A DNA stretch of 64,000 bases from a bacterium (GCA_030647205.1 JAUSJO010000005.1:74523-138522), one strand, 5' to 3'; positions 3,130 to 56,200 are shown, counted from the first letter of the stretch. Notes: generated from the letters alone by a model not told the origin. A program made the numbers and translations.

Positions 3130-4008
3130 GTGACCATAAAAGAAATTCTAATTTGGAGCACGAAAGAACTCAAAAATAACAATGTTTCCGAACCTGAAAA
3201 GTCGGCAGAGCTTTTGTTGCGGCAAATATTAAATTGGGACAAAGCGAAGTTGATAGCGAATCCGGATTACAAATTGAATTCTGCTCAGGAAAGTAAATTC
3301 CGGGAATTCATTGAAAGACGTAAAAAACATGAACCGGTTTGGTATATCACGGGAAAAATCGAATTTTACGGATTAGATCTGGCAGTAAACCAGGATGTAC
3401 TTATCCCGAGACCGGAAACGGAATTTTTAGTTGAGGAAGTTCTCTCTGTCATTCTGACGAAGGAAGAATCTAAAAAGAGATCCTTCGTGCCTCAGGATGA
3501 CATATTTAGGATATTAGAGCTAGGAACCGGCAGCGGTGCGATTGCATTGTCGTTGGCAAATAAATTAAAGTCAAAAATATTTGCTTCAGATATTTCAAAA
3601 GAAGCTCTAGAAGTTGCAAAGAAAAATACGAAGAAATTAGAATTAGAAAAATACATTGAGTTTAGACAGGGGAGTTTGTTTGAACCGTGGGGCAGTGAGA
3701 AATTCGATTGTTTCGTAGCGAATTTGCCATATATTCCACATGAAGATATGAGCTCGTTAGCTCTAGATATCCATCACTTCGAGCCACGCTTAGCATTAGA
3801 CGGAGGGAAAGAAGGATTAGAAATTTATGAGGAGCTGTTGTCTCAAGCAGGAGATTATTTAAACGAAAACGCTATGATGTTTTTTGAGATAGGAATTGAT
3901 CAGGGAGATAAATTAAAGAAATTAGTAGAAAAATATCTGCCGAAAGCAAAAGTGAGGATTATAAAGGATTATGGCGATATAGATCGCATAGCGGTTATTT
4001 CTACCTAA
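3130..4008 (+). CDS. prmC: Release-factor glutamine N5-methyltransferase PrmC/HemK (GTG start)
   Basis: SAM-binding motif LELGTGSGAIAL and the NPPY-type motif 'NLPYIP'. Confidence 0.8.
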   Translation: MTIKEILIWSTKELKNNNVSEPEKSAELLLRQILNWDKAKLIANPDYKLNSAQESKFREFIERRKKHEPVWYITGKIEFYGLDLAVNQDVLIPRPETEFLVEEVLSVILTKEESKKRSFVPQDDIFRILELGTGSGAIALSLANKLKSKIFASDISKEALEVAKKNTKKLELEKYIEFRQGSLFEPWGSEKFDCFVANLPYIPHEDMSSLALDIHHFEPRLALDGGKEGLEIYEELLSQAGDYLNENAMMFFEIGIDQGDKLKKLVEKYLPKAKVRIIKDYGDIDRIAVIST

Positions 4009-4029: not shown

Positions 4030-4400
4030 GGGTAAACTCTGTGGAGGGATCCCTTTCTCTGTCATCCTGAGGCACGAAGGATCTCAATCCCATCATCCCC
4101 ACCTTCCTCTGTCATTCCCACGGAGGTGGGAATCCAGTCTTTAAAATATTATCCACTTTTTTAGAAAAAGTGGAGTAAAAATCGCGACTTATGGCGGCGA
4201 CAAAGTGTCGGATTTCAGTTCTCTCTCACTTTGAAAAAATGAACTCGCTAGATCGCTCAGACAACATTATTTTCAAAGTCTTCGTTCGCTTTATCCTCTC
4301 TTTGTCTTCGATAGTCGCATTAGAGATTATTCGGCTTATTCTCTTTTTGAAAAAATCATGCCGGGGGGGAAGTCGGATTTGGTAATTACTTTTGTCTTTT
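4030..4400. repeat. Composite intergenic repeat element (type A body, hairpin units at 4040-4140)
   Basis: Positions 4150-4385 are about 90% identical to 55765-55975. Same modules as 13262-13510 and 48880-49100: hairpin ccacttttttagaaaaagtgg, aaaatcgcgact, tttgaaaaaatgaactcgct, cgatagtcgca, tttgaaaaaatcatgccgg. Confidence 0.85.
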
Positions 4401-4406
4401 TAATTT

Positions 4407-4425
4407 TTGATTTGAGATTTATAAT
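4407..4425 (+). promoter_or_regulatory. -10 TATAAT (4420-4425) placed 6 nt before ATG 4432, implying a leaderless mRNA; TTGATT lies 7 nt upstream
   Basis: Read directly. Same architecture as 37841, 43784, 44955, 53630 and 57254. Confidence 0.45.
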
Positions 4426-4431
4426 CAAGTC

Positions 4432-13196: not shown

Positions 13197-13515
13197 TCTT
13201 TCTCTGTCATTCCGACCGAAGCGGAGGAATCCCTTTCTCGTCATTCTGGCTTGTCCAGAATCTATTATTATTTATCCACTTTTTTAGAAAAAGTAGAGCA
13301 AAAATCGCGACTAGACGGCTTCTCAAAGTGTCGCTCAAACCTCATCTCAAATTTGAAAAAGGACAACAAGCCGATTCCGGAAGCCCTTTTCCAAAATTTC
13401 GTCTCGGTTTTCACTCGCTTATTGAACCGATAGTCGCAAATACTATTTATAAAGTTCATTCTCGCTTTGAAAAAAATCATGCCGGAGGACTCTCTTCCTT
13501 TGTGATGCTGGGAGT
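13197..13515. repeat. Composite intergenic repeat element (hairpin units 13200-13265 plus a type A variant body)
   Basis: Same module order as the 4030 and 55603 copies. ORFs at 13251-13561 on both strands lie inside it and are judged spurious. Confidence 0.8.
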
Positions 13516-13589
13516 AAAATTTCAATTTTCGAATCTTTTTTCTTGTGCTACAATAGTTTAGATTTATTTAGGATTTTTTGGAGGCGTAT

Positions 13590-19009: not shown

Positions 19010-19040
19010 GAAAAAAGCCACACTCGTGGCTTTTTTTGAT
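19010..19040 (+). terminator. Rho-independent terminator
   Basis: Hairpin aagccacactcgtggctt followed by ttttttt. Confidence 0.6.
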
Positions 19041-19727: not shown

Positions 19728-20110
19728 AATCTTGTCATTCCGACCGATACCACGCTAGTGGAAAGCGGAGGAATCCCTTTCTCCGTATGTCATTCCCGCA
19801 CTGGATCTAGTTCAGCGTAAACATCCGGCGGGAATCTAGTCTTTAAAATATTATCCACTTTTGTTTGGGCAAAAGTGGAGCAAAACCCACCGACTAGCAC
19901 TACGAAATAGATAAAACTAATAAAAATTTATCATTCTTGCGCACGAAGCGTTTCACTAAAGCGTGCTTTTGTCCTAAAGGAGCATTCTAAATTTTTAAGT
20001 TTTATTAGCGACGTAAGGTGAGTGGTATGAAAAGGTAATCCTTTTTTATATCTGAGCCGAGGAGCTAAAATATTTTAACTATTTCTTCGTAATGTCGGGA
20101 AGAGAACAAA
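19728..20110. repeat. Composite intergenic repeat element (hairpin units 19730-19850 plus a type B body)
   Basis: The body is near-identical to 245-475. Confidence 0.85.
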
Positions 20111-20231
20111 AAATCACGCCGGACGAGATACTGTGACGTTGGGAGGAGAGAAAAATTTTCCACTTTACACGGAGTCAAAAAATATCTATTATTTATCTAT
20201 AAAACTAAAATATTGAGGGAGTTTATTTAAA

Positions 20232-20414
20232 ATGCCAAAGTTAGAAGTTGATGAAAACCTTTGTTCAGGTTGCGGAACTTGCGTAAGCGAATGTCCGGAC
20301 TGTTTTGAAATGGGCGATGATTTCAAATCTCATGTCAAAAAAGAAACTTGTGACGGTTGCGATCTGGGTAATGTCGCGGCCGACTGTCCTATGGGGGCTA
20401 TAAGCTATGAATGA
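20232..20414 (+). CDS. Small single-cluster ferredoxin
   Basis: CSGCGTCVSECP ... CDGC...CP cysteine pattern. Confidence 0.65.
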   Translation: MPKLEVDENLCSGCGTCVSECPDCFEMGDDFKSHVKKETCDGCDLGNVAADCPMGAISYE

Positions 20415-23298: not shown

Positions 23299-23487
23299 AA
23301 TAGTAGTGCAAGCTTGCCGACTGAAATCTCATAATTTCGGCTACAAGCCACTCAAATCTCGTCAGAATATTCTAATATTCTTTCTCGATTTTCACGTCTT
23401 TCGCTCGGAATTCTGAAATTTCAGTTCGACATGAGATTCCGCGCAGTCTCTGAGAGAAAATAGAGTCAAAAAAGATTAAATAAGGCG

Positions 23488-24345
23488 TTAACCTTCCTCT
23501 TTACTTTTCGTAATGCCTAGTGCAGAGAAGACAACCAAAGAACCTCCAAGCACCATATTCCACGTTACCGCTTCACCAAGTATTATTGCCGCAAGCGCTA
23601 TGGCACTCACCATCTCCAGATAAGAAAGTAGCGATGTTTTGATTACTCCTATTTTCTTTAGTGCAGAAAAGAAAAGCACATAGCCCACAAGTCCGATTAC
23701 AATCGAAAATGCAGTGCCTAAAAGCATTTGGTTGACTGTTGGGAAGGGTTTATTTATAAAAACAAAGGGTAAAAAGATGATAGCACCCAAAAAATTATAA
23801 TAAAAAACAGTCTCATATTTTGAATATCTTTCAAGACCCGGTTTCAAGATTGTCGTCGTGAAGCCCATGATGATAGCTTCCAAAGTCACGGCCACCATAC
23901 CTATAAAGTCCTTACTGTCCAAGGAAAATTGTTTGTTTGCATATATCAAAACGGCGCCCAAAAAAGATATGGCGACAAGACACAACGTTCTAAGGTTTAC
24001 TTTTTCTTTTAGAATTATAATGCTAAATAGTACGGCAAATATAGGCCATGTGTAATGGATAATGACGGCGTTTCCCACAGAGGTAAAGAGGAAAGCTATT
24101 GTATAAAGGTATATTCGAAGAGCCGTTAAGGCGGAAGAGGCTAGAACTACTTTGTTGTCGCCGCGGAAAAGTTTGGTTTTTTTATAGACAAGATAACCAC
24201 CCAAAATAATGGTGGGGAAGAGGAGCCGAAAAAATGAGATAGTTGTTGCGGGAAGCGCCAAAATTTTTACAAGTATACCACTGCTTCCCCACAGAGTTGC
24301 AGCTACAATAATTTCAAAATATCCGCTTTTTATGTTTTTAACCAT
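23488..24345 (-). CDS. EamA/DMT-family transporter (10 TM)
   Basis: Two EamA-like hydrophobic halves. Confidence 0.6.
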   Translation of the reverse strand: MVKNIKSGYFEIIVAATLWGSSGILVKILALPATTISFFRLLFPTIILGGYLVYKKTKLFRGDNKVVLASSALTALRIYLYTIAFLFTSVGNAVIIHYTWPIFAVLFSIIILKEKVNLRTLCLVAISFLGAVLIYANKQFSLDSKDFIGMVAVTLEAIIMGFTTTILKPGLERYSKYETVFYYNFLGAIIFLPFVFINKPFPTVNQMLLGTAFSIVIGLVGYVLFFSALKKIGVIKTSLLSYLEMVSAIALAAIILGEAVTWNMVLGGSLVVFSALGITKSKEEG

Positions 24346-24377
24346 AAAAGCTATTATAAAGCTATTCGGATCAAAGG

Positions 24378-24407
24378 AAAAGCCCCGCTAGAGCGGGGCT
24401 TTTTTGA
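24378..24407. terminator. Bidirectional hairpin terminator
   Basis: aaaagccccgctagagcggggctttttt. Confidence 0.6.
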
Positions 24408-24642
24408 AACCTTCAGAGCTGGGGACAAAGGTCCATGTCATCCTTCCGTTTAGTTCAACCTTTTTTACTATGAATCCTTTTTTGCCCATAGCTTTCAAGG
24501 CAAAGTGAACGGGGATTAGGATGATCATGCGCACAAGGACGATGAATGCGAAGATTGAGTATAGAAAGATAGATGGCCACTTTACAAGTGGATTTTTACT
24601 CCAACATCCCATGTAAGTTTTTTTGATGATGTGCTTTATCAC
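24388..24642 (-). CDS. Small membrane protein (hypothetical)
   Basis: ORF with two hydrophobic segments. Confidence 0.4.
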   Translation of the reverse strand: MIKHIIKKTYMGCWSKNPLVKWPSIFLYSIFAFIVLVRMIILIPVHFALKAMGKKGFIVKKVELNGRMTWTFVPSSEGFKKAPL

Positions 24643-24675
24643 TTACTTCCTTTCCTTTCATGTATGCCATGTTTT

Positions 24676-25080
24676 TTAGGAAGCGATGCTGACCCTCTCC
24701 CGGTTTTCTACATAAACCGACACAGGGCTTAAGAAGGCGGTTATGAAACCCTTCTCCGGATTGATCCCGCATGTTTCTTTGATCTTTTGCACGATATTCT
24801 CGAGAAGACGGTGCTCTTTATCTTCAAGCGCCGGGTAACATTCCCAGAGATCGTCAGAGATCTGCACTTCAACATTCACTTTTGAGAAGAGGGGATCGTC
24901 AGAGTTTTCATATCGGACCTCTATGTCGGTCCTCGGATCCCGCATAACCTTATCAAGGTTGTGAGCATAGTAAACTGTGTACTTGATATGATCTCTGAGC
25001 TCAGCTTTCAGACCCTCTATATCTTCCACCTTTGCTCTTTCAAAGAGCTTTTGTGCATTCGTGATTATAATGCGTAGCAC
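24676..25080 (-). CDS. Hypothetical protein
   Basis: ORF only. No family recognised. Confidence 0.4.
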   Translation of the reverse strand: MLRIIITNAQKLFERAKVEDIEGLKAELRDHIKYTVYYAHNLDKVMRDPRTDIEVRYENSDDPLFSKVNVEVQISDDLWECYPALEDKEHRLLENIVQKIKETCGINPEKGFITAFLSPVSVYVENRERVSIAS

Positions 25081-25179
25081 GATAGGTCCTTTCGATAGAC
25101 TTTGTAGATTCCATCAAATAAGTAAGGGTAATTTTAACATGTTATCTATAAGTTGTAAATGAAATATCCGTAACATAGG

Positions 25180-25208
25180 AAAAGCCCCGCTCTGCAGCGG
25201 GGCTTTTG
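25180..25208. terminator. Hairpin terminator (gccccgctctgcagcggggc flanked by A/T runs)
   Basis: Read directly. Confidence 0.55.
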
Positions 25209-25226
25209 GGGTGCGTAGCATGATAA

Positions 25227-25988
25227 CTAGAGCCGGTAGTAAGTAGATGTATAGTCGATAGCTTCTTTTATGTTGAGCTTGTCGGTAATCGGGTCACGGA
25301 GTTTGCCCTCGGCATCTGTACCTGTGTTTGGAAAGCGCCTTAGAATGGGGGCAACTATGTTACTATTTTTACCGTAGAGCCCGCCCGCAAGTACGACTCC
25401 GACGTCCAGGTTAGCCGTCTCTATCGCCTCAATGTGTCTCATAATGAGATCCGGGTTTAGCTCTTTCCCGAGTCCGCCACTCAGATCAAGTATCAGGTAG
25501 TCCACTTCTCCGTTTGGAAATGCAGTTTGGAAGCCGTTTACCAGCTTTTCTGCCGACTCATCTGTATTTTTGAGAGTGCGTGTACCTGCTTGTAGGACTA
25601 TCTGCATTTCAGGATACTTTTCCTTGAACTCGGTAATCTCTCTAGCCTCAGGCCATGTCATATTCAGCTGAAAGCCGTGGAGATTTGGGCCGCCGTACTC
25701 TCTGGTGATAGAGATAAGAACCTTCCCGAGGCCTTCATGATGCTTCATGCCATCGCCATAGTGGACCAGGTTTAAGGCTCGCTCATCGTCTGAGGTTATC
25801 TTTGCGATATCCCTCGTTATTGGATATCTCTCCGGCCATTTGTTTGGCAGGCCGGCTATCGTCTTCTGGCTTGCAAGTATTCCGACCATGAACTTTTTTG
25901 TTGATCCCTCGGGTATGGCGCTCATTACCTCATCGACTTCTTCGCGTGTCATAAAACCGGTAATGCCAATGTACGGTTCGCGTTTCAT
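25227..25988 (-). CDS. TIM-barrel protein resembling phosphoribosylanthranilate isomerase (TrpF-like)
   Basis: IGITGF N-terminus; DYLILDLSGGLGKELNPD; VVLAGGLYGKNSN; GTDAEGKLRD. These parallel TrpF landmarks, matched from memory. Confidence 0.35.
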   Translation of the reverse strand: MKREPYIGITGFMTREEVDEVMSAIPEGSTKKFMVGILASQKTIAGLPNKWPERYPITRDIAKITSDDERALNLVHYGDGMKHHEGLGKVLISITREYGGPNLHGFQLNMTWPEAREITEFKEKYPEMQIVLQAGTRTLKNTDESAEKLVNGFQTAFPNGEVDYLILDLSGGLGKELNPDLIMRHIEAIETANLDVGVVLAGGLYGKNSNIVAPILRRFPNTGTDAEGKLRDPITDKLNIKEAIDYTSTYYRL

Positions 25989-26146
25989 TTTTTGCCTCCT
26001 TTTGTTATCAAGTTGCTAGTAAACCTATAATATCCATGTTGTATGCATGTTGATATTGCGTTATGTGGTCAGGATTAGGCGACATTTTAAGTTAAAAATA
26101 ATAAAATTAAGTTGAAACATATCTATTTATATGTCAATATGTTGAT

Positions 26147-26593
26147 ATGATAAAGTGTCCATATTGCAGAAAAGATTTCAATGACGTCAAAAACAGCCGT
26201 TCTACTTTTGGTAGTTCACAAATCTGGAGAAGGCGTTTGTGTAGGAAATGCGGCAAAACTTTCACCACGTATGAAAAAGTGCGGCCGGACTTCCTATTTG
26301 TTATTAAAAGATCAGGCAAGAAAGAGAGGTATTCCAGAGAGAATATTTACTCCGGTATATATCGCGCTGCTCTTGACTGGGAAGATAAGGAGCGCATAGT
26401 CAACAAAATAGTAAATGTTGTCGAGTCAAGAATACTGGATCTTGGCAAGAAAGAGGTTAAAACATCGGATATATCGGATATTGTTCTTAAAGTCTTGAAA
26501 CATAGGAATATAAAGACGTTTGTCCGTTTTCTGGCATACAACAAACAACCAAAAGGCGAAGAGGAGTTCTTGAGTCTTTTCCGCAAGTACTAA
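26147..26593 (+). CDS. nrdR: Transcriptional repressor NrdR (zinc ribbon plus ATP-cone)
   Basis: CPYC...DVKNSR...RRRLCRKCGKTFTTYE. Confidence 0.8.
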   Translation: MIKCPYCRKDFNDVKNSRSTFGSSQIWRRRLCRKCGKTFTTYEKVRPDFLFVIKRSGKKERYSRENIYSGIYRAALDWEDKERIVNKIVNVVESRILDLGKKEVKTSDISDIVLKVLKHRNIKTFVRFLAYNKQPKGEEEFLSLFRKY

Positions 26594-26675
26594 AACTTTA
26601 CTTTATTTATAAAAAATTTTATAATTTTTATATAAAATAAAGCTTACGTAAAAATAAAATGAAGGAGACTATAAA

Positions 26676-27914
26676 ATGTCAGAGGGGAATGTGACACCGG
26701 AAGGAATATATAGCGACCATAAGGAAGCTGCGGGCATGTTAGAGTCGTCAGCCGAGAGGCACGAAGCAGCAAAGGCTGATCTTAAAGATGCTCGAGAACT
26801 CTACAACATGACGGAAGGAAGCGGTCTTAACGAGGGGGTTATCGCCAAGGCAAAGGATATTCATGAGTCTGCAAAAGCCGAGAATACCGCCGCCAGGAAT
26901 GAAAGCAAAGAGGTCAAAGGTTTATATGATGATAATCTCGAAATGGCTAAACAGTCAGTAACTCCTGAACTTGTAGATAGGGCAGAGTATGAAAACGAAA
27001 TGCGCGACAAAATTATAAGCGCCATAGATGAACATAACTATGGGATAGCAAAAGGTTTACTAGAAGAGCTTTTCAAAAAGGAAACAGGGATATCAATGGG
27101 GTCGGAAACTGAAGAAAACACGGTCATCACAGAGATTCCGATAGAGAAAGTAGATTCTCCGAAAGTATCGATACCCGTTAGAGAAGCAAAAGATACAGCA
27201 GAAAGTCCGGTTATCGAGATACCGGTAGAAAAGAAAAGTTCTCCTGAAGTGTCGATACCGGTTAGAGAGGCGGCAAACACAACTTCTGATCTGGATGATT
27301 TGAATCCTGAAGTTAAGGAATGTATCGATCTTATAAATATTGAAACAAGAAACTGCTTCAAGCCGGAGAACTTATCACCGGAAGAACTAAAGAGGCTTGC
27401 AGACTTGTTGGAAAACTCTACTCAGGAAGAAGTGATGGAGATAGTGAGGACTAGAGCGCATGAGATGAAGCTGATAGACTATGTCGCCACTCCCACCGCT
27501 TTTGAGAAAAACATGCACAAAAGCAATTATGGGAAAATGGGGCAGAGAGATCTGACAGATGATGTTTTGAATGCAAGGCTTTCAAGAGAAATATTAACTG
27601 AAGGGGAACAGAAAGAGCTTGAAGAAGCATTGGAGCAAAAGGGTGATAGTATTGAGATCAATGAAGAAGATAAAAGGCTTTTAGAGCTGGTAGTAAAAGC
27701 ATATAGGATCTTAAAAAGAGGCGAGCAGGATCCGGGAGGCGTAACAAAAGATCTTTATGCAACCGGCTACAGTAACATTGGCGATATGAAGAATGACTAC
27801 TCTGCTGATAATTTGTTAAAGATTATACAGACAAGCGACTATGTACTTACAGCCGTAAGACATGACAGAATCTTAAAGGATAGGATCAAGGACACTCTGG
27901 CAAAAGCCAAATAA
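26676..27914 (+). CDS. Acidic hypothetical protein with an internal ~30-aa tandem repeat
   Basis: RBS AAGGAG. Repeats IPIEKVDSPKVSIPVREAKDT / IPVEKKSSPEVSIPVREAANT. Confidence 0.5.
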   Translation: MSEGNVTPEGIYSDHKEAAGMLESSAERHEAAKADLKDARELYNMTEGSGLNEGVIAKAKDIHESAKAENTAARNESKEVKGLYDDNLEMAKQSVTPELVDRAEYENEMRDKIISAIDEHNYGIAKGLLEELFKKETGISMGSETEENTVITEIPIEKVDSPKVSIPVREAKDTAESPVIEIPVEKKSSPEVSIPVREAANTTSDLDDLNPEVKECIDLINIETRNCFKPENLSPEELKRLADLLENSTQEEVMEIVRTRAHEMKLIDYVATPTAFEKNMHKSNYGKMGQRDLTDDVLNARLSREILTEGEQKELEEALEQKGDSIEINEEDKRLLELVVKAYRILKRGEQDPGGVTKDLYATGYSNIGDMKNDYSADNLLKIIQTSDYVLTAVRHDRILKDRIKDTLAKAK

Positions 27915-27927
27915 AGGGAAAAAAGAG

Positions 27928-27970
27928 AAAGAGGAAGTATCTTTTAAGGGGATACTTCCTCTTTTTTTGT
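27928..27970 (+). terminator. Rho-independent terminator
   Basis: Hairpin gaggaagtatcttttaaggggatacttcctc followed by ttttttt. Confidence 0.7.
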
Positions 27971-27993
27971 TGAGATCTATGCTTTGTTAGCGG

Positions 27994-28320
27994 TCAGGCT
28001 GACCAGCTATATACAAATGCATAGTTCTCAGATGGTGTTTCTGCTACGGCCTTAGACTCGAAATATTCATCAAAGGCCGATACTACGGTCTGATCCTCAT
28101 CGGTCAGACCTAAAACGAAACTCGTGCTGTCTGAATGGATGATTTGCGCTATATTTTCTTTGTTTGCGCCGTAGAAAAAGCATTCTCCACAGTCATCGTT
28201 CCAGTTGATGTCCACTCCGTGGCGTCTTAGGATCCTCACCACTTCGTAAGTGTCCACCATTGAGAACTTCGATGACTCGAAGTCGCAAACTGGAATCTTC
28301 TTTTCGGACATTGTTATCAC
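27994..28320 (-). CDS. Hypothetical protein
   Basis: ORF only. Confidence 0.4.
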   Translation of the reverse strand: MITMSEKKIPVCDFESSKFSMVDTYEVVRILRRHGVDINWNDDCGECFFYGANKENIAQIIHSDSTSFVLGLTDEDQTVVSAFDEYFESKAVAETPSENYAFVYSWSA

Positions 28321-28440
28321 ACCCTCTATTTTTTTAGGTACACAGCTGTGTCAGCTGATAATGTCGTGATATAGTAACATAAAAATAATGTTGTGTAAAG
28401 GGCTTTATTTACAGTCTATCCCTTTTTCTTTTATTCTAAT

Positions 28441-28532
28441 CGTGCTATAGTAAGCACTCAAATTAGCTACGAAAGTTAGGGGGTAGCCTCTAACTTTTTA
28501 AAAGCTCGAACTTTGAAACGAGGTGAACTAAG
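28441..28532 (+). promoter_or_regulatory. Extended -10 promoter (TGcTATAGT) plus an ~85-nt conserved leader, copy 1
   Basis: About 80% identical to 29553-29642 upstream of a different gene. Confidence 0.6.
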
Positions 28533-29492
28533 TTGACAGCTCATTCAGAAAGAGGCCGGCGAGGTACTTTTTGGAATGGCAGAAAGCCGGTGGTATTAGT
28601 AAATGGAGCCGCCAGGAACGGTAAAAAGTTCGGACAAGAGTTGGTCTCATATCTAACCGCGGAAAAACTGGAACCTGCTGTGGTAGAGACAGGAAAGCCC
28701 GGAAATGCATCCATGATTGTCAGTGAATTGATGAAGGAGGCAAATGCTATATTTGTGGTTGGAGGCGATGGCACTTTGACTGAAGCGGCTGGGGGAGTTG
28801 TCACGGCCCAAAGGAAGAATGAAAAAGCAGTTCTTATTTTTGTGCCCGGTGGCACCGCTAACCTCATTTCCCGGAAAGTCATTCCCGGCGGCTTAAAAAG
28901 CATAAAGGAAATGATTCAGCGGGACGCAATTTCTCCTGACAAAATGGATGCTTTGAAAATAAGGTTGGTTGAAAGAGACGGGAGAGTCAAAGAACTGGTA
29001 GTACTAGGCCATATTGGCTTTGGCGTTACGGCGAAAGGTGCCGAAATCATTATGGAGAAAAGGCCGGGGAATCGTCTGACCGAATTAAAGGCTGTAACTG
29101 CTGCCCTGAAAAAACCGGTAGAGATAACGATGGAAGGAAGAGACTTAAAAGTAAGACACTTGCTTCTAAACAACGTTGGTGTTTCCGGCAGGTATATAAA
29201 GACGAGTAATTCTCTGATTGACGATGGCCTGATGGAAGTGGTTATAAACAATGGCAACCTCTTGTCGCTGTTTGGAGACGGCCTTCGAGCATTTATCAAG
29301 GGGATTAAGGGGGAACAGAGGAAAACTCTGTCTTTTGAAATACCGGACGGTACTATTGCTCAGATAGATGGGGAGATTCTCAGCATAGCGCCAAAGACAG
29401 AGGTTGTAGTAAGTGTTTTACCGGGGGCAATCCCGATGGTTACGGATAAATGCTTCTGTTTATCATTTTCGAAACAGCCGAATCGTTACTGA
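28533..29492 (+). CDS. Lipid kinase of the DAGK-catalytic / YegS / BmrU family (TTG start)
   Basis: DAGK_cat signature VVGGDGTLTEAAGGVV. N-terminal RKPVVLVNGAARNGK. Confidence 0.75.
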   Translation: MTAHSERGRRGTFWNGRKPVVLVNGAARNGKKFGQELVSYLTAEKLEPAVVETGKPGNASMIVSELMKEANAIFVVGGDGTLTEAAGGVVTAQRKNEKAVLIFVPGGTANLISRKVIPGGLKSIKEMIQRDAISPDKMDALKIRLVERDGRVKELVVLGHIGFGVTAKGAEIIMEKRPGNRLTELKAVTAALKKPVEITMEGRDLKVRHLLLNNVGVSGRYIKTSNSLIDDGLMEVVINNGNLLSLFGDGLRAFIKGIKGEQRKTLSFEIPDGTIAQIDGEILSIAPKTEVVVSVLPGAIPMVTDKCFCLSFSKQPNRY

Positions 29493-29493
29493 A

Positions 29494-29546
29494 AGGAGAG
29501 GACGTGAGATTTGTCTCACGTGAAGTACCTCTCCTTTTTCTTTTTC
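29494..29546 (+). terminator. Strong rho-independent terminator
   Basis: Long hairpin aggagaggacgtgagatttgtctcacgtgaagtacctctcct followed by ttttcttttt. Confidence 0.75.
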
Positions 29547-29552
29547 AAATTT

Positions 29553-29642
29553 TGTGCTATAATAAACACTCAAATTAGCTAGGAAAAGTTGGAGGGTATC
29601 TTCAGCTTTTTAAATGCTTGAACTTTGAAAAAGGAGACGGTA
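29553..29642 (+). promoter_or_regulatory. Extended -10 promoter (TGcTATAAT) plus the conserved leader, copy 2
   Basis: Paralogous to 28441-28532. Confidence 0.6.
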
Positions 29643-29831
29643 ATGTACAAACTATTTAAGTGGCTAACTTTCATATCGGTAGCCGGTTTGGCATTTTTAC
29701 TGCTATTGATAGTCTTTCTTAAGCCGACATCTGACAATGGACTTTGGGCGGCAATTGGCGGATATTTCTGTCTTGGCTGTTTCGCACTTTTTGCCGGAAT
29801 AACGCTCTATTTGCGTGAGGAAAGAGCCTGA
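29643..29831 (+). CDS. Small two-TM membrane protein (ORF could also start at TTG 29625)
   Basis: RBS AAGGAG sits 6 nt before ATG 29643. Confidence 0.5.
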   Translation: MYKLFKWLTFISVAGLAFLLLLIVFLKPTSDNGLWAAIGGYFCLGCFALFAGITLYLREERA

Positions 29832-30141
29832 GGAAATAAATTTCAAATCATGGAATGGGGTGAATGGAATGGAAAAGCTAGTGAGCGAGCCGCAGAACAG
29901 CCAAGAGTTTCGATATATCAAGATTCAGTTGCCGTCACGTTGCGCGGTTTGTGATGTGACTCAAGACTTCTCATGGCTAAAGCAGAAGTGTGGGGAAGTT
30001 CTATTTGGTCCGCATCTTTCTACGGTTTGTGGCAAGGTGGAGGAAAAGAACTTCGATCAAGTCATAGCTGCTATCAGAAGAGGATTCATAGTTGAGGAGA
30101 TATCCGAAAACGAGTATGCAGCTTTTTCCTGGGGCCTTTAG
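29815..30141 (+). CDS. Hypothetical protein (probable start ATG 29872)
   Basis: ORF only. Confidence 0.35.
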   Translation: MRKEPEEINFKSWNGVNGMEKLVSEPQNSQEFRYIKIQLPSRCAVCDVTQDFSWLKQKCGEVLFGPHLSTVCGKVEEKNFDQVIAAIRRGFIVEEISENEYAAFSWGL

Positions 30142-30158
30142 AGCAAACATGAAAAATA

Positions 30159-30428
30159 ATGGAGGTGGATGAGTTGGCTGAAGCTGTTGCAATAATCTTA
30201 AAAGGCGGATGGAACTGGAAGAGTTCGGTTCCGTATATGGCGGTGGCCTGTTTCTTAAAGATCATCATCATCGGCTGTATCGGTGTGATTGCTTCCGATA
30301 TGTCAGGTCCGACGATTGATCGGGTAGAAAGCACCATTATCGTGGCTGCTTTGCTCGATGCCCCGATCAGTATACTTGCGGTCAAGCTGTTTGTTGATGA
30401 GTTGAGGGATATCAGGAGAGGGAGGTAG
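30159..30428 (+). CDS. Small hydrophobic protein 1 of a four-gene overlapping operon
   Basis: ORF. Stops and starts overlap through 31274. Confidence 0.4.
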   Translation: MEVDELAEAVAIILKGGWNWKSSVPYMAVACFLKIIIIGCIGVIASDMSGPTIDRVESTIIVAALLDAPISILAVKLFVDELRDIRRGR

Positions 30429-30433
30429 CTAAA

Positions 30434-30634
30434 ATGCAAGTGATCATATCCGTAGTGCTTATTGTCTGGGCTGTAATAGTTACGTTCATAATCCAGCCTC
30501 ATATCGGTCAACCGGTGAATCCCTCTTATGTCGTTTGGCTTTTCTTCGGTCTCATGCCCGGTAGTATCGGTGCCGGTCTTTTGGCTGCCAGCCTTAGATC
30601 TAGTATATTGCCCAATGCAAAAAAAGGTGGTTGA
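30434..30634 (+). CDS. Small two-TM protein 2
   Basis: ORF, hydrophobic. Confidence 0.4.
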   Translation: MQVIISVVLIVWAVIVTFIIQPHIGQPVNPSYVVWLFFGLMPGSIGAGLLAASLRSSILPNAKKGG

Positions 30635-30990
30635 TCATGGGAATCTTCAAACCAAATGCTCCGAAAAGTTCCAAGATACTTCTGTACGGCTTTGCACTTG
30701 CGTTTATCGGGGTGTTGGCATGCACACTTTCCAGTATTATCTTTCCCAATAACTGGGACTTACTACTGATTTCAATGCTGGCACCTGGTATTCCGGGCAT
30801 GACGCTAATGCTGTATTTCTGGTTCAAATACGCGCCGGAACTTGCTTGCCCATATGACAGAGGCGAGTGCGATGGCGAGTGCGTTAGCAAAGACCAGAGC
30901 ATCATTTGCGGCCGGTATTGTAAATGCTGGGGGGAAAATGTAACAGATGGTCCCAGAACTGCTCTGGTCAGACTGAATGGAGGTGAGTGA
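30631..30990 (+). CDS. Membrane protein 3 with a Cys-rich C-terminus (CPYDRGECDGECVS...CGRYCKCWGE)
   Basis: ORF. ATGA overlap with both neighbours. Confidence 0.45.
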   Translation: MIMGIFKPNAPKSSKILLYGFALAFIGVLACTLSSIIFPNNWDLLLISMLAPGIPGMTLMLYFWFKYAPELACPYDRGECDGECVSKDQSIICGRYCKCWGENVTDGPRTALVRLNGGE

Positions 30991-31274
30991 AGATGCAGAC
31001 GGTATATGCTATTCTGGCAGCTGTAGTACTTGGCCTTTTGTTCATAGGTTACTTTCTGGTGGGTATAGGGATAGTTGCTATAAGCAAGACTAAGTATTTT
31101 CGCTGGCTTGCATCAGAGAGATATTGGAGGCGTTGTGACATGCGTGGCATCAATGAAGCCGATATCGATCTCCTTTGGCCGTTTACGCTAATTGTTTTGC
31201 CAAGCCTTGTCCTTCTAAAGGGTTCACAAATCTTGATAAGAAGGTGGGGACTGGACAACAGTTTTATTAGATAG
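30987..31274 (+). CDS. Small membrane protein 4
   Basis: ORF. Confidence 0.4.
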   Translation: MKMQTVYAILAAVVLGLLFIGYFLVGIGIVAISKTKYFRWLASERYWRRCDMRGINEADIDLLWPFTLIVLPSLVLLKGSQILIRRWGLDNSFIR

Positions 31275-31380
31275 TGATAAAGGCATTTTGGCGGGGACAA
31301 GAGAAAGTAATCTTGTCCCCGCAAAAGGGGACTTTTTGAAAAAAGAGTCCTTTTTTCTTTTGTTTGTTTTGCAAAAACCC

Positions 31381-31409
31381 TTGAAACTTCCGAAAAAATT
31401 CTGTATACT
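31381..31409 (+). promoter_or_regulatory. Sigma70-like promoter (TTGAAA, 17-nt spacer, TATACT) for uvrA
   Basis: Read directly. Confidence 0.5.
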
Positions 31410-31489
31410 ATTTAGGTTTCTAGATTTGGGCTTAAAGCAGGCTTTTTATTGTTATAGATTCCCGTTTGAGCGGGAGTAAAGGATGGGTT

Positions 31490-38957: not shown

Positions 38958-38981
38958 TTTCAATGTAGAACAGTTTCTGTG

Positions 38982-39167
38982 CTATTTTTTATTTATATAT
39001 TTCCACAATGCGGCGATACCGAGAATTAGGGCGACTATGACGAGTATGTAGCCAATCCACATAAAAATCATGGCTCCGCCATAGCTTCCACCCATCATGT
39101 TTTGATAGGAATCGTAGTTGTACATCATTGTAAATCTCCTTTGTTTAGCTTGAGTATAGGTAAACAA
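38982..39167 (-). CDS. Tiny single-TM protein, paralog of 42520-42708 (real start probably MMYNYDSY...)
   Basis: About 85% amino-acid identity to the paralog. RBS AAAGGAG precedes ATG ATG. Confidence 0.55.
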   Translation of the reverse strand: MFTYTQAKQRRFTMMYNYDSYQNMMGGSYGGAMIFMWIGYILVIVALILGIAALWKYINKK

Positions 39168-39558
39168 TGATGGATTTACTATGGGCAGGAATACAAAAGA
39201 ATCAGAACATTTTCGTGGCTATTTTTTAGCTAAATCCAGCAAGTTTTTGAAAAGAGTTAAGGCCGCCCTTGCGGGCGGCCTTGTTGGTACGTGTTTTCGC
39301 GTTGTTTTCTTGCAGTTTCTGGTTGTCAGCCTTGGGAGCTAATTATCAAGAGCATTAACGCGATGCAGAAGATAGCTATGGGGAGCCAGTTTCTTTTGAT
39401 GTCTCTCCCGAGCTCAAACAAGGGCCAGAACATCTCGTCGCGATTCGCCACCTTCTTGATTCTTGTCATTCTTGTCGTCATTGCGATAACCTCCTTGAGA
39501 TGTTACGTGGTTAGTAACATGCCGATTGACTGGGGTGCAGGTGTACATGGAAGTTGGC

Positions 39559-41017: not shown

Positions 41018-41220
41018 GACTCCTCCTTGAGTCTCTGTTTTCCAGAATATTTTTTACCGCTTCGTTAGAAGCGGAGTAACCTGATTTAATGTATGGTTCA
41101 CTCTAAAGCCAAAATTTCTGCTTAAGAGAATAATGTATACTACCATAGAATATCTTTTTTGTCAATAGTTATTTAAACCCCAAATTCTCACCTTCGCAGT
41201 AGAAAATAGGGGAAACTACA

Positions 41221-41254
41221 GGCACGAGATTTTGCTATCGCACAATCTCGTGCC
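41221..41254. promoter_or_regulatory. 34-bp palindrome ggcacgagattttgctatcgcacaatctcgtgcc (copy 1)
   Basis: Perfect 11-bp arms. The second copy lies 167 bp downstream. Confidence 0.5.
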
Positions 41255-41387
41255 ACCTCACTCCTAAAACTCAGGATTATAAAGTAAAACTCAGAAATAT
41301 TGATGATATTTGCTTTTGTATACTTGTTTCTCATTTCTGAAAGGCATTAAAATATTTAGCACAAAGACAAAGTTAACGGCACGAGTT

Positions 41388-41421
41388 TTTGCTATCGCTC
41401 AAACTCGTGCCTTATAAAGGA
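41388..41421. promoter_or_regulatory. 34-bp palindrome ggcacgagtttttgctatcgctcaaactcgtgcc (copy 2), immediately before the PaaX-like gene
   Basis: Read directly. Confidence 0.5.
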
Positions 41422-41426
41422 AACAA

Positions 41427-41960
41427 TTGAAAAAGAAAAGAAAGATATATTTAGGGAAGAATGAGAGAGAAATTCTAAGGATGGTGGGAACAGGAGCTTT
41501 GGTGGCTGCTTCTTTGGTCGCGCCGAACTTGCCAAGTGCCTTTGCGGGCAAGAAAAAGAAATCTTATCGGCAGAGTTTCCAGAGGGCGTACGATAAAAAC
41601 CTAATTTATTTGAGCGGTGAGAAGGTTCAGCTCTCGGAAAAGGGACAGAAGCTGATGGAACAGATACTTAGCGAGGATATTGAAATTAAAAAGCATGAAT
41701 GGGATGGGATTTGGCGGATTGTTTCGTATGACATTCCGGAAGATCCGCTGAAAAAAGAACGAAGTTATTTCAGGCGAAAACTTGAGAGTTTAGGATTTGT
41801 GGAACTGCAGAAAAGTATGATGGTGATACCTTATGAATGCAAAGAAGAGATAGCGGTAATTGCACAGAATTTGCGGATCTCGCCATATGTCATGCATCTC
41901 ATCACCGATAACCTGCCTAGACAGAATGAGTTTGTTAAGAGATTTGGATTGGAAGAATAA
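41427..41960 (+). CDS. PaaX-like domain protein (putative transcriptional regulator)
   Basis: WDGIWRIVSYDIPE...RSYFRRKLESLGFVELQKSMMVIPY parallels the PaaX core. Confidence 0.45.
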   Translation: MKKKRKIYLGKNEREILRMVGTGALVAASLVAPNLPSAFAGKKKKSYRQSFQRAYDKNLIYLSGEKVQLSEKGQKLMEQILSEDIEIKKHEWDGIWRIVSYDIPEDPLKKERSYFRRKLESLGFVELQKSMMVIPYECKEEIAVIAQNLRISPYVMHLITDNLPRQNEFVKRFGLEE

Positions 41961-42044: not shown

Positions 42045-42497
42045 TTATTTTTTAGCTAAATCGAGCAAGTGCTTGTGCTGCCACTCTCGTTCTTTGGCAA
42101 CATCTCCGCCTGCTCTATGAATAGCTTGTAATGCGTAAATTGCACTGCCGATGGCGTGAGTGGGGACGTGCGCGGTTGCCGCTGCCTGGCCTGCGGCTCG
42201 GGCGGCAGAACGGGCTGAGCTATCCTTGTTTACATCACGGGCGGCAGCATGAGATGCAAGGGAAGCGCCGCGGATAACAGACATTTTAAATACACCTGTA
42301 TCTAGCCATGTTTGCAATGTTTCCAGAGCTTGTTTGGGTCGTTTATCATTTGGAAAACTATCTTCAAAATAGGGCAGAACCCGCTCAGCACAGTCAACAG
42401 CCCAGACAGCCAAGGTTTTCTGGTCAGCTTTACTGACTATGTCTATAAAATATTCCTTCTGCTCCGCGAGTGAAAAACTAGATTTCATACCTCTCAT
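42045..42497 (-). CDS. Helical Ala-rich protein resembling predicted immunity-protein families
   Basis: AAARDV..SSARSAARAAGQAAATAHVPTHAIGSAIYALQA. GC-rich. Weak family call. Confidence 0.3.
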   Translation of the reverse strand: MRGMKSSFSLAEQKEYFIDIVSKADQKTLAVWAVDCAERVLPYFEDSFPNDKRPKQALETLQTWLDTGVFKMSVIRGASLASHAAARDVNKDSSARSAARAAGQAAATAHVPTHAIGSAIYALQAIHRAGGDVAKEREWQHKHLLDLAKK

Positions 42498-42519
42498 TAT
42501 ACACCAGGGCAGAATGTGG

Positions 42520-42708
42520 CTATTTTTTGTTTAGATATTTCCACAACGCGGCGATACCGAGGATTAAAGTAACTATGACTAGTATGTATCCAAGCCACAT
42601 GAAGAGCACGGCTCCACCTGTGCTCCCACCCATCATATTTTGATAGGAATCGTAGTTGTACATCATCATAAATCTCCTTTGTTTAGTTTGAGTATGGATT
42701 AAAAGCAA
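42520..42708 (-). CDS. Tiny single-TM protein, paralog of 38982-39167
   Basis: See the paralog entry. Confidence 0.55.
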   Translation of the reverse strand: MLLIHTQTKQRRFMMMYNYDSYQNMMGGSTGGAVLFMWLGYILVIVTLILGIAALWKYLNKK

Positions 42709-42765
42709 TGATTTTCCTATGGGCAGGAATACAAAAGAATCAGAACATTTTTGTGGGCGGTCTCG

Positions 42766-48676: not shown

Positions 48677-48829
48677 AATGAAACAGAAATGGGAGGAGGA
48701 AGAAGAGAGGCTCCGCAAAAATAGAAAGAGCAAGAAAAAGCCCGTGCAAAAGATGAAAGTTTCGGGAAAGAGTGTTTTTGGTATTGCCAAAGAACTTAAG
48801 AAAAAATAATCTTTCTACTTTTTGACAGC

Positions 48830-49100
48830 AAAAATTCACTTATCTACTTTTTTAGAATCTATTTTCAACTTTTGGCAGCAAAAATTTATTTATTACTTTT
48901 TTAAAAAAAGTAATGCAAAAATCGCGGCTTAGGCGGTCTCTCAAAGTATCATCTGGTTCGCTCTCTCATCTTTAAAAAAATTAACTCGCTTCTCTCAAAC
49001 AAAATTCTTTTTAAAGGTTCGTTCACTTCCAGACTTTCTTTTCGAGCCGATAGTCGCAAGAGAGCTCCCTTTGAAAAAATCATGCTAGGAATTAGATTGG
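48830..49100. repeat. Composite intergenic repeat element (type A variant with a duplicated 5' module)
   Basis: Shares caaaaatcgcggcttaggcgg...cgatagtcgcaagagagctccctttgaaaaaatcatgc with 56030-56080. Confidence 0.75.
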
Positions 49101-49121
49101 ATTTACTTATCTGCTAAATTC

Positions 49122-49130
49122 TGATAGAAT
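49122..49130 (+). promoter_or_regulatory. Extended -10 TGaTAGAAT 7 nt before ATG 49138, implying a leaderless mRNA
   Basis: Read directly. Confidence 0.4.
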
Positions 49131-49137
49131 TGCACTC

Positions 49138-49359
49138 ATGCAAAAAGAAATACTTACAAGCATTATCATAGCTTCTGCGGTCGTTCTCATCATTTCAGTG
49201 CTACTTCAGAAAAAAGACGGTGGACTTGGCGCGACATTCGGTAGCAGTGGAGGCGCATATATGAAAAAAAGGGGTGCGGAAAAGGTTATTTTCTTTGTGA
49301 CTATTATCTCGGCTATAGTTTTTGGCGGGACTATCTTGGTCAGTCTCATTCTTAAATAA
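49138..49359 (+). CDS. secG: Preprotein translocase subunit SecG
   Basis: LLQKKDGGLGATFGSSGG motif and two TM helices. Confidence 0.75.
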   Translation: MQKEILTSIIIASAVVLIISVLLQKKDGGLGATFGSSGGAYMKKRGAEKVIFFVTIISAIVFGGTILVSLILK

Positions 49360-55602: not shown

Positions 55603-56110
55603 GGTAAATCTCTGTCATCCTGAGGTACGAAGGATCTCTTTTCTTCTGTCATTCCGACCGATACCACGCTAGTGGAAAGCGGAGGGATCCCTTTTCCCGT
55701 ATGTCATTCCCGCCCGCCAAAGGTCGGATAAACTCCGGCGGGAATCCAGTCTTTTTAAAATATTATCCACTTTTTTAGAAAAAGTGGAGTAAAAATCGCG
55801 ACTTATGGCGGCGACAAAGTGTCGGATTTCAGTTCACTCAGGTTTGAAAAAATGAACTCGCTAGAGAGCTCAGACAACATTCTTTTCAAAGTCTTCATTC
55901 ACTTTATCCTCGCTTTGTCTTCGATAGTCGCAAGAGATCCTTTGCTTTCAAGCTTTCTTTATTAAAACCATGCCAGGAGGGGGAAAGACCTATTTCTTCG
56001 TGATGTCGGGAATACAAAATCCTCGCTTTTCGAGCCGATAGCCGCAAGAGAGCTCCCTTTGAAAAAATCATGCCGGGGAGAGAAAGACCTATTCTTCTTG
56101 GTTGCGGGAG
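55603..56110. repeat. Largest composite intergenic repeat element (hairpin units 55605-55760, type A body, duplicated tail modules)
   Basis: 55765-55975 is about 90% identical to 4150-4385. Tail modules recur at 48990-49100 and 60-115. Confidence 0.85.
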
Positions 56111-56200
56111 GAAATTTTATTTTATTAAAACTTGTTGTTTTATTTTTTTCCTTTGGTATTATATAAGTATTATAAAGTATTTTTTGATCTAGGAGGGTAA

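Follow-up and report, generated by a model that had tools for sequence, protein, structure and literature searches.

A promoter-and-hairpin leader repeated around a lipid kinase gene near uvrA in a Patescibacteria genome: a candidate attenuator

The DNA considered here, called the window below, is a stretch of 64,000 nt from a bacterial assembly (GCA_030647205.1, JAUSJO010000005.1:74523-138522). A short intergenic element occurs twice in it, once directly before a gene for a DAGK_cat-family lipid kinase and again behind that gene, before a gene for a 62-aa membrane protein that opens a series of small genes stopping short of uvrA (31466). A search with the UvrA protein places the window within the Patescibacteria, or Candidate Phyla Radiation (CPR); the closest named matches are labelled "Patescibacteria group bacterium", and the UvrA proteins of CPR2 and Howlettbacteria stand at about 71% against that of the window. 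The exact kinase and 62-aa proteins were matched on one 13.5-kb Logan contig only, and the gene call of a Logan contig gives the kinase the same TTG start as in the window.

The two copies (28442-28518 and 29554-29630) form a direct repeat of 77 nt that is 79% identical without gaps (two-copy family D7 of the repeat finder), and gapped blastn aligns the same pair at 84.6% over 78 nt (E = 8e-7); an earlier sequence-only reading of this DNA, which had put the two upstream regions at about 80% identity over about 90 nt, is borne out here, as is its observation that both open with an extended -10, seen in the alignment as TGCTATAGT in copy 1 and TGCTATAAT in copy 2. A T-rich stretch upstream, CCTTTTTCTTTT, is also common to both. 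Similarity is lost directly after ...GAACTTTGAAA, ahead of the Shine-Dalgarno (SD) sequences and the start codons, so that the genes are not entered, and by Pfam scan the two proteins encoded downstream, the kinase and the 62-aa membrane protein, are unrelated. The repeat is therefore free of coding sequence, and a larger segmental duplication that includes some, the possibility that would have undone the earlier proposal, is rejected. The 108-aa protein encoded beside copy 1 matches a 90-aa reading at 29869-30141 at only 25% over 56 aa (E = 0.005).

Both a 15-mer search and a covariance model run with its filters off find exactly two copies in the window, scoring 61.4 and 60.5 bits with the model, the next best match reaching 15 bits. 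A dispersed repeat of the repetitive extragenic palindrome or miniature inverted-repeat transposable element type was considered and rejected, there being two copies in 64 kb and one per relative locus having the element. Inspection found no terminal inverted repeat common to both copies, with a weak one in copy 2 only. The differences between the copies lie mostly in the stem of a hairpin (9 of about 30 positions, against 4 of about 47 in the flanks).

In each copy the order of parts is the extended -10, a 5' segment of about 14-19 nt, a hairpin of 12-13 bp, and a conserved block, GCTCGAACTTTGAAA, that runs into the SD (Table 1). From the -10 to the stem there are 19-20 nt, and the SD and start codon come 20-35 nt past the stem. 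Written as RNA, the hairpins are GAAAGUUAGGGG-GUAG-CCUCUAACUUUU in copy 1 and GAAAAGUUGGAG-GGUAU-CUUCAGCUUUUU in copy 2, each with five U and then AAA, and the block behind them is AAA(A/U)GCU(C/U)GAACUUUGAAA, followed by the SD; the end of the hairpin, CTTTTT(T)AAA, is invariant. Inspection of the leader found no AUG, GUG or UUG frame with an SD that might encode a leader peptide, and a possible pseudoknot (GCUAC with the loop GUAGC) in copy 1 only.

Relatives carrying the element were reached through protein searches (kinase, UvrA) and not by pattern scans. A scan of GTDB genomes gave three matches, in Shewanella and Pedobacter, at chance level, and one of JGI metagenomes gave 58, none of them in related sequence (many-copy organisms' coding regions, for example, belong to abundant species); the source organism is apparently absent from both collections. 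One pattern scan of viral sequence gave no match. Only three DAGK homologues were found. The closest, on contig L003, is 92% identical and belongs to a near strain (sample SRR22388055); this contig starts and stops inside the element, and a second one, L076, with a UvrA that is 99% identical, begins inside the element ahead of the 62-aa gene. As read from these two contigs, the near strain has the same repeat-kinase-repeat layout, and both of its copies have the hairpin form of copy 1 (form A below) together with the block GCTCGAAC. The next kinase homologue, L004 (32%, from a high-GC organism), has no similar leader.

Single copies are found in more distant relatives whose UvrA is 92-94% identical, on contigs L066, L067 (= L068) and L070, where they score 52, 54 and 45 bits with the covariance model, which was built from a structure-guided alignment. 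The first genes behind these copies are not homologous to one another or to genes of the window. Between uvrB and uvrA of L066 and L067 lies a set of small genes with the module at its head, and the kinase is absent upstream of uvrA in the stretch available; in L070 the set lies directly upstream of uvrA, and this contig begins inside the element, so that what precedes it is unreadable. The covariance model finds no module in L071, L073, L074 or L075, of which the last covers only 240 nt upstream of uvrA, and gives no further match in about 95 kb of relatives' DNA; uvrB is separated from uvrA by 447 nt in L073 and lies next to it in L074. The further copies with covariation that the earlier reading had proposed to look for are thus present in three related contigs, and on these sequences the module is narrowly distributed, a clade-restricted feature within the Patescibacteria.

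The hairpin appears to be held by selection on its pairing. In a structural alignment of six sequences 97% of the cells are paired in a helix of 13 pairs, and when the 3' partner is shifted by one column pairing falls to 66-82%. One pair is A-U in three of the six and G-C in the other three; another is present in three sequences and missing from both arms in the other three, a compensated insertion; and five pairs vary by G·U wobble only. Two forms can be told apart, form A (GUUAGRGG/CCUCURAC), found in copy 1 and also in L003/L076 and L070, and form B (GUUGGAG/CUCCAAC); the hairpin of copy 2 keeps the form of L066 and L067 (GTTGGAG/CTCCAAC) apart from two transitions, which result in G·U pairs. 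All five lineages have stems of 12-13 bp, with energies of -11.5 to -14.7 kcal/mol, followed by U5-6. Full pairing is found on the + strand only: since G·U pairs become A·C mismatches on the opposite strand, the constraint points to + strand RNA, not to DNA or to an antisense RNA. The gttag...ctaac hairpin of the sequence-only reading therefore stands, kept in relatives through compensatory change, while the register of its agct...agct pairing is not kept in the other copies. An outer helix of this kind (agct...agct; UCAAA/UUUGA) was tried and dropped, for although 3-4 bp can be paired everywhere, the 5' partner shifts and L003 breaks one pair.

Comparison with synonymous sites separates the parts of the element. 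When the module and the kinase terminator are set beside those of the near strain (L003/L076), with the hairpin and 3' block of copy 2 left aside, 138 of 142 non-coding positions agree, compared with 75.7% of third codon positions in uvrA and 82.5% in the kinase gene (P ≤ 5e-8 for the difference). Of the four differences, two compensate each other within the kinase terminator, the inner stem of which (29503-29521, against L003:1021-1040) shows a double change between the strains, from ACGTGAGA...TCTCACGT to ATGTGAGA...TCTCACAT. For L066, L067 and L070, which agree with the window at 54-62% of uvrA third codon positions, identity in the hairpin is 73-87%, and the 3' block keeps 15-19 of 19-22 positions (75-90%) in all pairwise comparisons of copies, that of copy 1 with copy 2 included. 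The 5' segment, at 58-67% between lineages (11-12 of 18-19 positions against L066 and L067), is close to the uvrA third-position level. These figures indicate that purifying selection acts on a functional core made up of the -10, the stem-loop and its U-run, and the 3' block, and that the close match between the two 5' segments in the window (17 of 19) is the result of recent copying or gene conversion, not of constraint.

The same comparisons bear on two other explanations. The repeat might be a neutral relic of a recent duplication, a copied promoter and a leader without function, as the closeness of the copies in one genome and the gene conversion that clearly operates between them would allow; it is hardly credible given that the module sits at the corresponding place in relatives near synonymous saturation with hairpin and 3' block kept, that its non-coding identity to the near strain so exceeds the 76-82% of third codon positions, and that the differences between copies are concentrated in the stem with pairing preserved. 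The main product might instead be a trans-acting small RNA of about 45-50 nt, running from the promoter to the hairpin as its terminator, with the downstream genes served by read-through; an extended -10 and a hairpin with a U-run about 45 nt apart are the standard layout of a small-RNA gene. We consider this very unlikely, because the sole single-stranded part of such an RNA is the 5' segment, whose 58-67% against 54-62% at synonymous sites leaves it without a conserved seed, and the sequence past the hairpin is conserved and adjoins the SD without a second promoter.

The promoter is recognized from its recurrence. The motif TGNTATAAT recurs upstream of genes across the 64 kb of the window, and this extended -10 reads as the main, standard promoter signal of the genome; because of this recurrence the TGCTATA(A/G)T of the element is taken to be a genuine promoter that would start transcription about 5-7 nt further on. 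In several cases an ATG lies 7 nt past the motif (positions 19037, 43781, 44952, 53627 and 57251), which implies leaderless mRNAs; counting also 37838, 49122 and others, the ATG follows at 7 nt (once at 8 nt) with no SD, and leaderless mRNAs seem to be common in this organism. The leaders of the kinase and 62-aa genes, of about 80 nt and with an SD, are unusual in this genome. In L067 a -35-like hexamer precedes the -10 of the element at a spacing of 16 nt.

We favour, at a probability of roughly 0.45, the reading that the element is a promoter-proximal leader with an intrinsic terminator (an attenuator) joined to a conserved translation-initiation region, and that it has been duplicated around the kinase gene. 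The activity and start site of the promoter, the stopping of transcripts at the hairpin and its possible regulation, and the part played by the 3' block are drawn here from sequence: a strong extended -10 promoter would start transcription about 14 nt upstream of the 12-13-bp stem-loop ending in UUUUU, part of the transcripts would stop at its T-run, and those reading through would carry the conserved AU-rich block GCUCGAACUUUGAAA into a strong SD, where it would serve translation initiation. The terminators at 3' ends of genes in this genome have an A-run, a GC-containing stem of 5-7 bp and T5-7, the same design as the leader hairpin; examples are AAAAAAGCCAC-ACTC-GTGGCTTTTTTT before 19037, AAAAAAGAGAGGTC-AAG-ACCTCTCTTTTTT before 57251, and the sites at 27946 and 31315. 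Because the stem-loop is built like these ordinary terminators, some transcripts should stop there.

Several observations weigh against attenuation at this hairpin. When folded at full length the T-run pairs with the upstream A-run, for which reason a simple terminator scan flags copy 1 only, as a truncated stem; the invariance of the T-run may itself come from pairing alone, because A-to-G changes are tolerated there and U-to-C changes are not. No convincing antiterminator was found: the alternative hairpin between the 5' segment and the 5' arm of the terminator reaches only -1 to -5 kcal/mol and is absent in L066, and the 5' segment evolves about neutrally. Termination, if it occurs, may then be constitutive. 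Gene conversion also blurs the comparison of copies within a genome, those of L003/L076 sharing one hairpin form, and the five independent hairpin sequences come from one narrow clade, which makes the covariation supportive and not statistically strong.

In a different explanation the element is a high-expression leader whose stem-loop stabilises or processes the mRNA, whose AU-rich block and extended SD boost translation, and whose T-run is only the partner of the A-run. A GAAA before GGAGG would lengthen pairing with the 3' end of 16S rRNA (taking the textbook anti-SD tail; the host's 16S rRNA gene is not in the window), and the 3' block adjoining the SD is the best-conserved sequence of all. 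The A-run and T-run pair in every fold, and since most genes seem to be leaderless, so long a leader suggests a special need in expression. On the other hand, the hairpin lies about 14 nt from the predicted 5' end, too far to protect that end as known 5' stabilisers do; a GC-containing stem with U5 is expected to terminate to some degree, something that selection for stability should avoid; and the A-U pairs at the base of the stem are never G-C in the five lineages. The explanation accounts well for the 3' block and badly for the U-run, and we regard it as doubtful on the whole, if still a serious one. Such a leader has a familiar parallel in the T7 gene-10 leader of expression vectors, in which a 5' stem-loop is followed by the AU-rich 'epsilon' enhancer UUAACUUUA and a strong SD. 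The order is the same here, with a strong promoter, a stem-loop, an AU-rich block containing AACUUU before the SD, and a GGAG SD, though the stem-loop lies away from the extreme 5' end and is followed by U5; the likeness is short and gives no evidence of common descent. Switching between the SD and an anti-SD in the hairpin was also tried as an explanation and rejected: the 3' arm (CCUC / CUCC) can pair with each SD over 3-5 bp, which is trivial for purine- and pyrimidine-rich arms and shows no covariation.

Among known systems, the attenuator reading has its closest counterparts in promoter-proximal terminators and 5'-leader attenuators. Premature termination in 5' untranslated regions is described as mapped by Term-seq (PMC7815308), and PASIFIC is presented as a predictor of attenuators in 5' leaders (PMC5314783). 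The element shares with these a coding-strand stem-loop and U-run between promoter and start codon, with the structure conserved; it differs in the very short leader (about 14 nt before the stem) and in having no conserved antiterminator, leader peptide or known effector, termination itself being a prediction. The pyrG-type attenuator of B. subtilis is a minimal arrangement in which only the first transcribed bases and the terminator hairpin are needed. Its layout is like the present one, but here the GGGC start motif is not conserved (L066 has AAGGGC, the window copies AAGCAC and AAACAC), the 5' arm of the terminator is purine-rich, which makes pairing with poly-G impossible, and the downstream genes are unrelated to pyrimidine metabolism.

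Of the shared cis-regulatory leader proposed in the sequence-only reading, the part that stands is a promoter and a transcribed leader, both predicted, that are common to the two genes; the part that does not is the suggestion that it is riboswitch-like. A cmscan of the whole window with Rfam 15 at the gathering threshold returned tRNAs only, and over 28330-29700 at E ≤ 10 there were chance-level matches only, far below the cut-offs. Riboswitch expression platforms resemble the element in placing a terminator-type hairpin in a 5' leader common to unrelated genes, though here there is no aptamer-sized conserved region, only about 14-19 nt preceding the hairpin and evolving at about the synonymous, near-neutral rate. 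Lacking an Rfam match, space for an aptamer and a convincing antiterminator, the element gives no support to a riboswitch. As to the target of a small RNA, another suggestion of that reading, there is no evidence either way. Two protein-binding sites were also considered and set aside, an NrdR box (nrdR lies 2 kb upstream), which matches at about 8 of 16 positions, and a LexA/Cheo box (CGAAC...), of which there is one half-site only, both being poor matches to the consensus.

The position of copy 2, before the small-gene operon, is that of the single copy in relatives, and its hairpin shares form B with L066 and L067; the copy in front of the kinase, copy 1, has form A like L070, and the near strain has form A in both copies. 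This suggests that the module is normally single in a genome, heading small genes by uvrA, and that it was doubled around the kinase in the lineage of the window. In the simplest account, the kinase gene with its own terminator, the T-run of which is the T-rich sequence noted above on the upstream side of each copy, would have come to lie behind the module; the module would then have been duplicated, so that the operon kept the same promoter and leader as the kinase; and patches would later have been exchanged between the copies, the single hairpin form and block shared by the copies of the near strain pointing to gene conversion. The two-copy state is a lineage-specific duplication around one gene and not a dispersed regulon motif.

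The layout of a repeat, a single gene with its own terminator and a second repeat would also suit a DNA recombination or landing site, with the repeats as scars of cassette insertion (Campbell-type or site-specific) at the entry point of a variable island. The first gene behind the module is different in every relative, the content of the island varies even between strains with 99% identical UvrA, and one strain shows an exchange of hairpin form between its two copies, all of which would fit. We nevertheless think it unlikely: no integrase or recombinase is nearby, by Pfam scans of the window neighbours and the gene tables of L066, L067 and L070; the covariance model finds no such repeat between the other genes of the island in the window, so that these stand without an intervening repeat; G·U pairs confined to the + strand point to RNA and not to a DNA cruciform; and the module holds a consensus promoter and abuts the SD. 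Integron cassettes and the Correia elements of Neisseria are similar in that a repeat flanks a single gene or a promoter-bearing repeat heads a variable set of genes, and differ from the present case in that here there are no integrase, only 1-2 copies per genome region, no terminal inverted repeats, and a constraint at the level of RNA.

Table 1. Positions of the parts of the two copies, of the module in relatives, and of other stretches discussed (window coordinates unless a contig is named; SD, Shine-Dalgarno sequence)
Feature	Position	Strand	Basis or remark
Copy 1, extended -10 TGCTATAGT	28443..28451	+	read in sequence; as TGCTATAAT in L066, L067, L003
Copy 1, 5' segment AAGCACTCAAATTAGCTAC	28452..28470	+	predicted transcription start about 5-7 nt past the -10
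Copy 1, hairpin form A, arms GAAAGTTAGGGG / CCTCTAACTTTT, loop GTAG	28471..28499	+	RNAfold, 12 bp, -14.7 kcal/mol
Copy 1, T-run, then AAAA	28495-28499	+	
Copy 1, conserved 3' block AAAAGCTCGAACTTTGAAA	28500..28518	+	pairwise identity between copies
Copy 1, SD GAGGTG (28520-28525) and TTG start (28533) of kinase	28520..28535	+	
DAGK_cat-family lipid kinase gene, between the copies	28533..29492	+	Pfam PF00781, E = 4.9e-15
Kinase terminator GGAGAGG...CCTCTCC and T-run	29495..29545	+	sequence, alignment
Copy 2, extended -10 TGCTATAAT	29555..29563	+	
Copy 2, 5' segment AAACACTCAAATTAGCTAG	29564..29582	+	identical in L003
Copy 2, hairpin form B, arms GAAAAGTTGGAG / CTTCAGCTTTTT, loop GGTAT	29583..29611	+	RNAfold, 12 bp, -11.5 kcal/mol
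Copy 2, T-run, then AAA	29607-29611	+	
Copy 2, conserved 3' block AAATGCTTGAACTTTGAAA	29612..29630	+	
Copy 2, SD AGGAGA (29632-29637) and ATG start (29643) of 62-aa membrane protein	29632..29645	+	
Module in L066	4549-4639		before 78-aa gene
Module in L067 (= L068)	4140-4232		before 151-aa gene
Module in L070	1-68		contig starts in hairpin; before 102-aa gene
Stretches upstream of uvrA in relatives	L066:3898-6000; L067:4032-6000; L070:1-1665; L076:1-3212; L073:5064-5510; L074:5907-6000		
Mosaic repeat regions	160-560, 3443-3472, 4056-4430, 13263-13577, 19733-20406, 48820-49320, 55609-56200		repeat finder

Upstream of uvrA lies a hotspot of gene turnover. From uvrB to uvrA the distance is only 94 nt in L074 and 447 nt in L073; L066 and L067 have about 2 kb of small genes between the two, and in the window the gap (23299-31465) reaches 8.2 kb and holds an EamA transporter, NrdR, the kinase and small membrane proteins. 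In L070 and L076, which start inside the element, only the small genes before uvrA are visible. Restriction-modification genes lie directly after uvrA in L066 and L067. The 108-aa protein divergent from copy 1 (27994-28320, - strand) and the second gene after copy 2 (29860-30141, + strand, about 90 aa) show a weak similarity at their C-termini (...SENYAFVYSWSA / ...SENEYAAFSWGL); neither has a Pfam match, and the two may be distant paralogues.

Other repeats are present in the window. The same repeat modules recur, in mosaic arrangement, in at least six long intergenic regions of 300-600 nt (families D2-D6, D8-D11, D13, D17 and D20), among them TGTCATCCTGAGGxACGAAGGATCTC, TGTCATTCCGACC...GGAATCCC, and a hairpin, TTATCCACTTTTTTAGAAAAAGTGGAG, containing the DnaA-box-like TTATCCAC. 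These regions precede unrelated genes (LysM/CHAP, GGDEF, SMC, SBP_bac_5 and two of unknown function) and have no Rfam match at the gathering threshold; such mosaics are unusual for a compact CPR genome. A direct repeat of 238 nt, 85% identical (38981-39218 and 42519-42756), looks like the duplication of a small gene on the minus strand, for a hydrophobic product of about 48 aa (MMYNYDSYQNMMGG...), together with the conserved region upstream of it, and one copy adjoins an Imm5-like immunity gene (42045-42497). Two units of family D16 (41200-41254 and 41357-41411), 157 nt apart, are intergenic before the gene at 41427 and contain a strong hairpin, GGCACGAG(A/T)TTTTGCTATCGC(A/T)CAA(T/A)CTCGTGCC.

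A 5' leader with a terminator-type hairpin is a familiar kind of regulatory leader, and it is this one that is newly described; its wider importance is probably limited by the narrow clade, the resemblance to an ordinary terminator and the conventional mechanism. A bolder idea, which we put forward as a long shot, is that of a portable promoter-attenuator cassette acting as the expression gate of a hypervariable Patescibacteria island, capturing the genes that come to lie behind it, duplicating with arrivals that bear a terminator, and having its hairpin under the control of a protein or nucleotide signal; if true, this would be a compact device for regulation and gene capture without a described counterpart in these reduced genomes. 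The control of gene expression in the Patescibacteria is little known and their regulators are few, and our literature searches found no transcript-level study of the group (CPR). With its conserved hairpin, the purifying selection on its core and the unrelated genes behind it, the leader would provide a sequence-defined handle on attenuation and translation initiation in these bacteria, and it is among the few defined candidate regulatory RNAs in the Patescibacteria, standing at the head of a fast-changing gene island.

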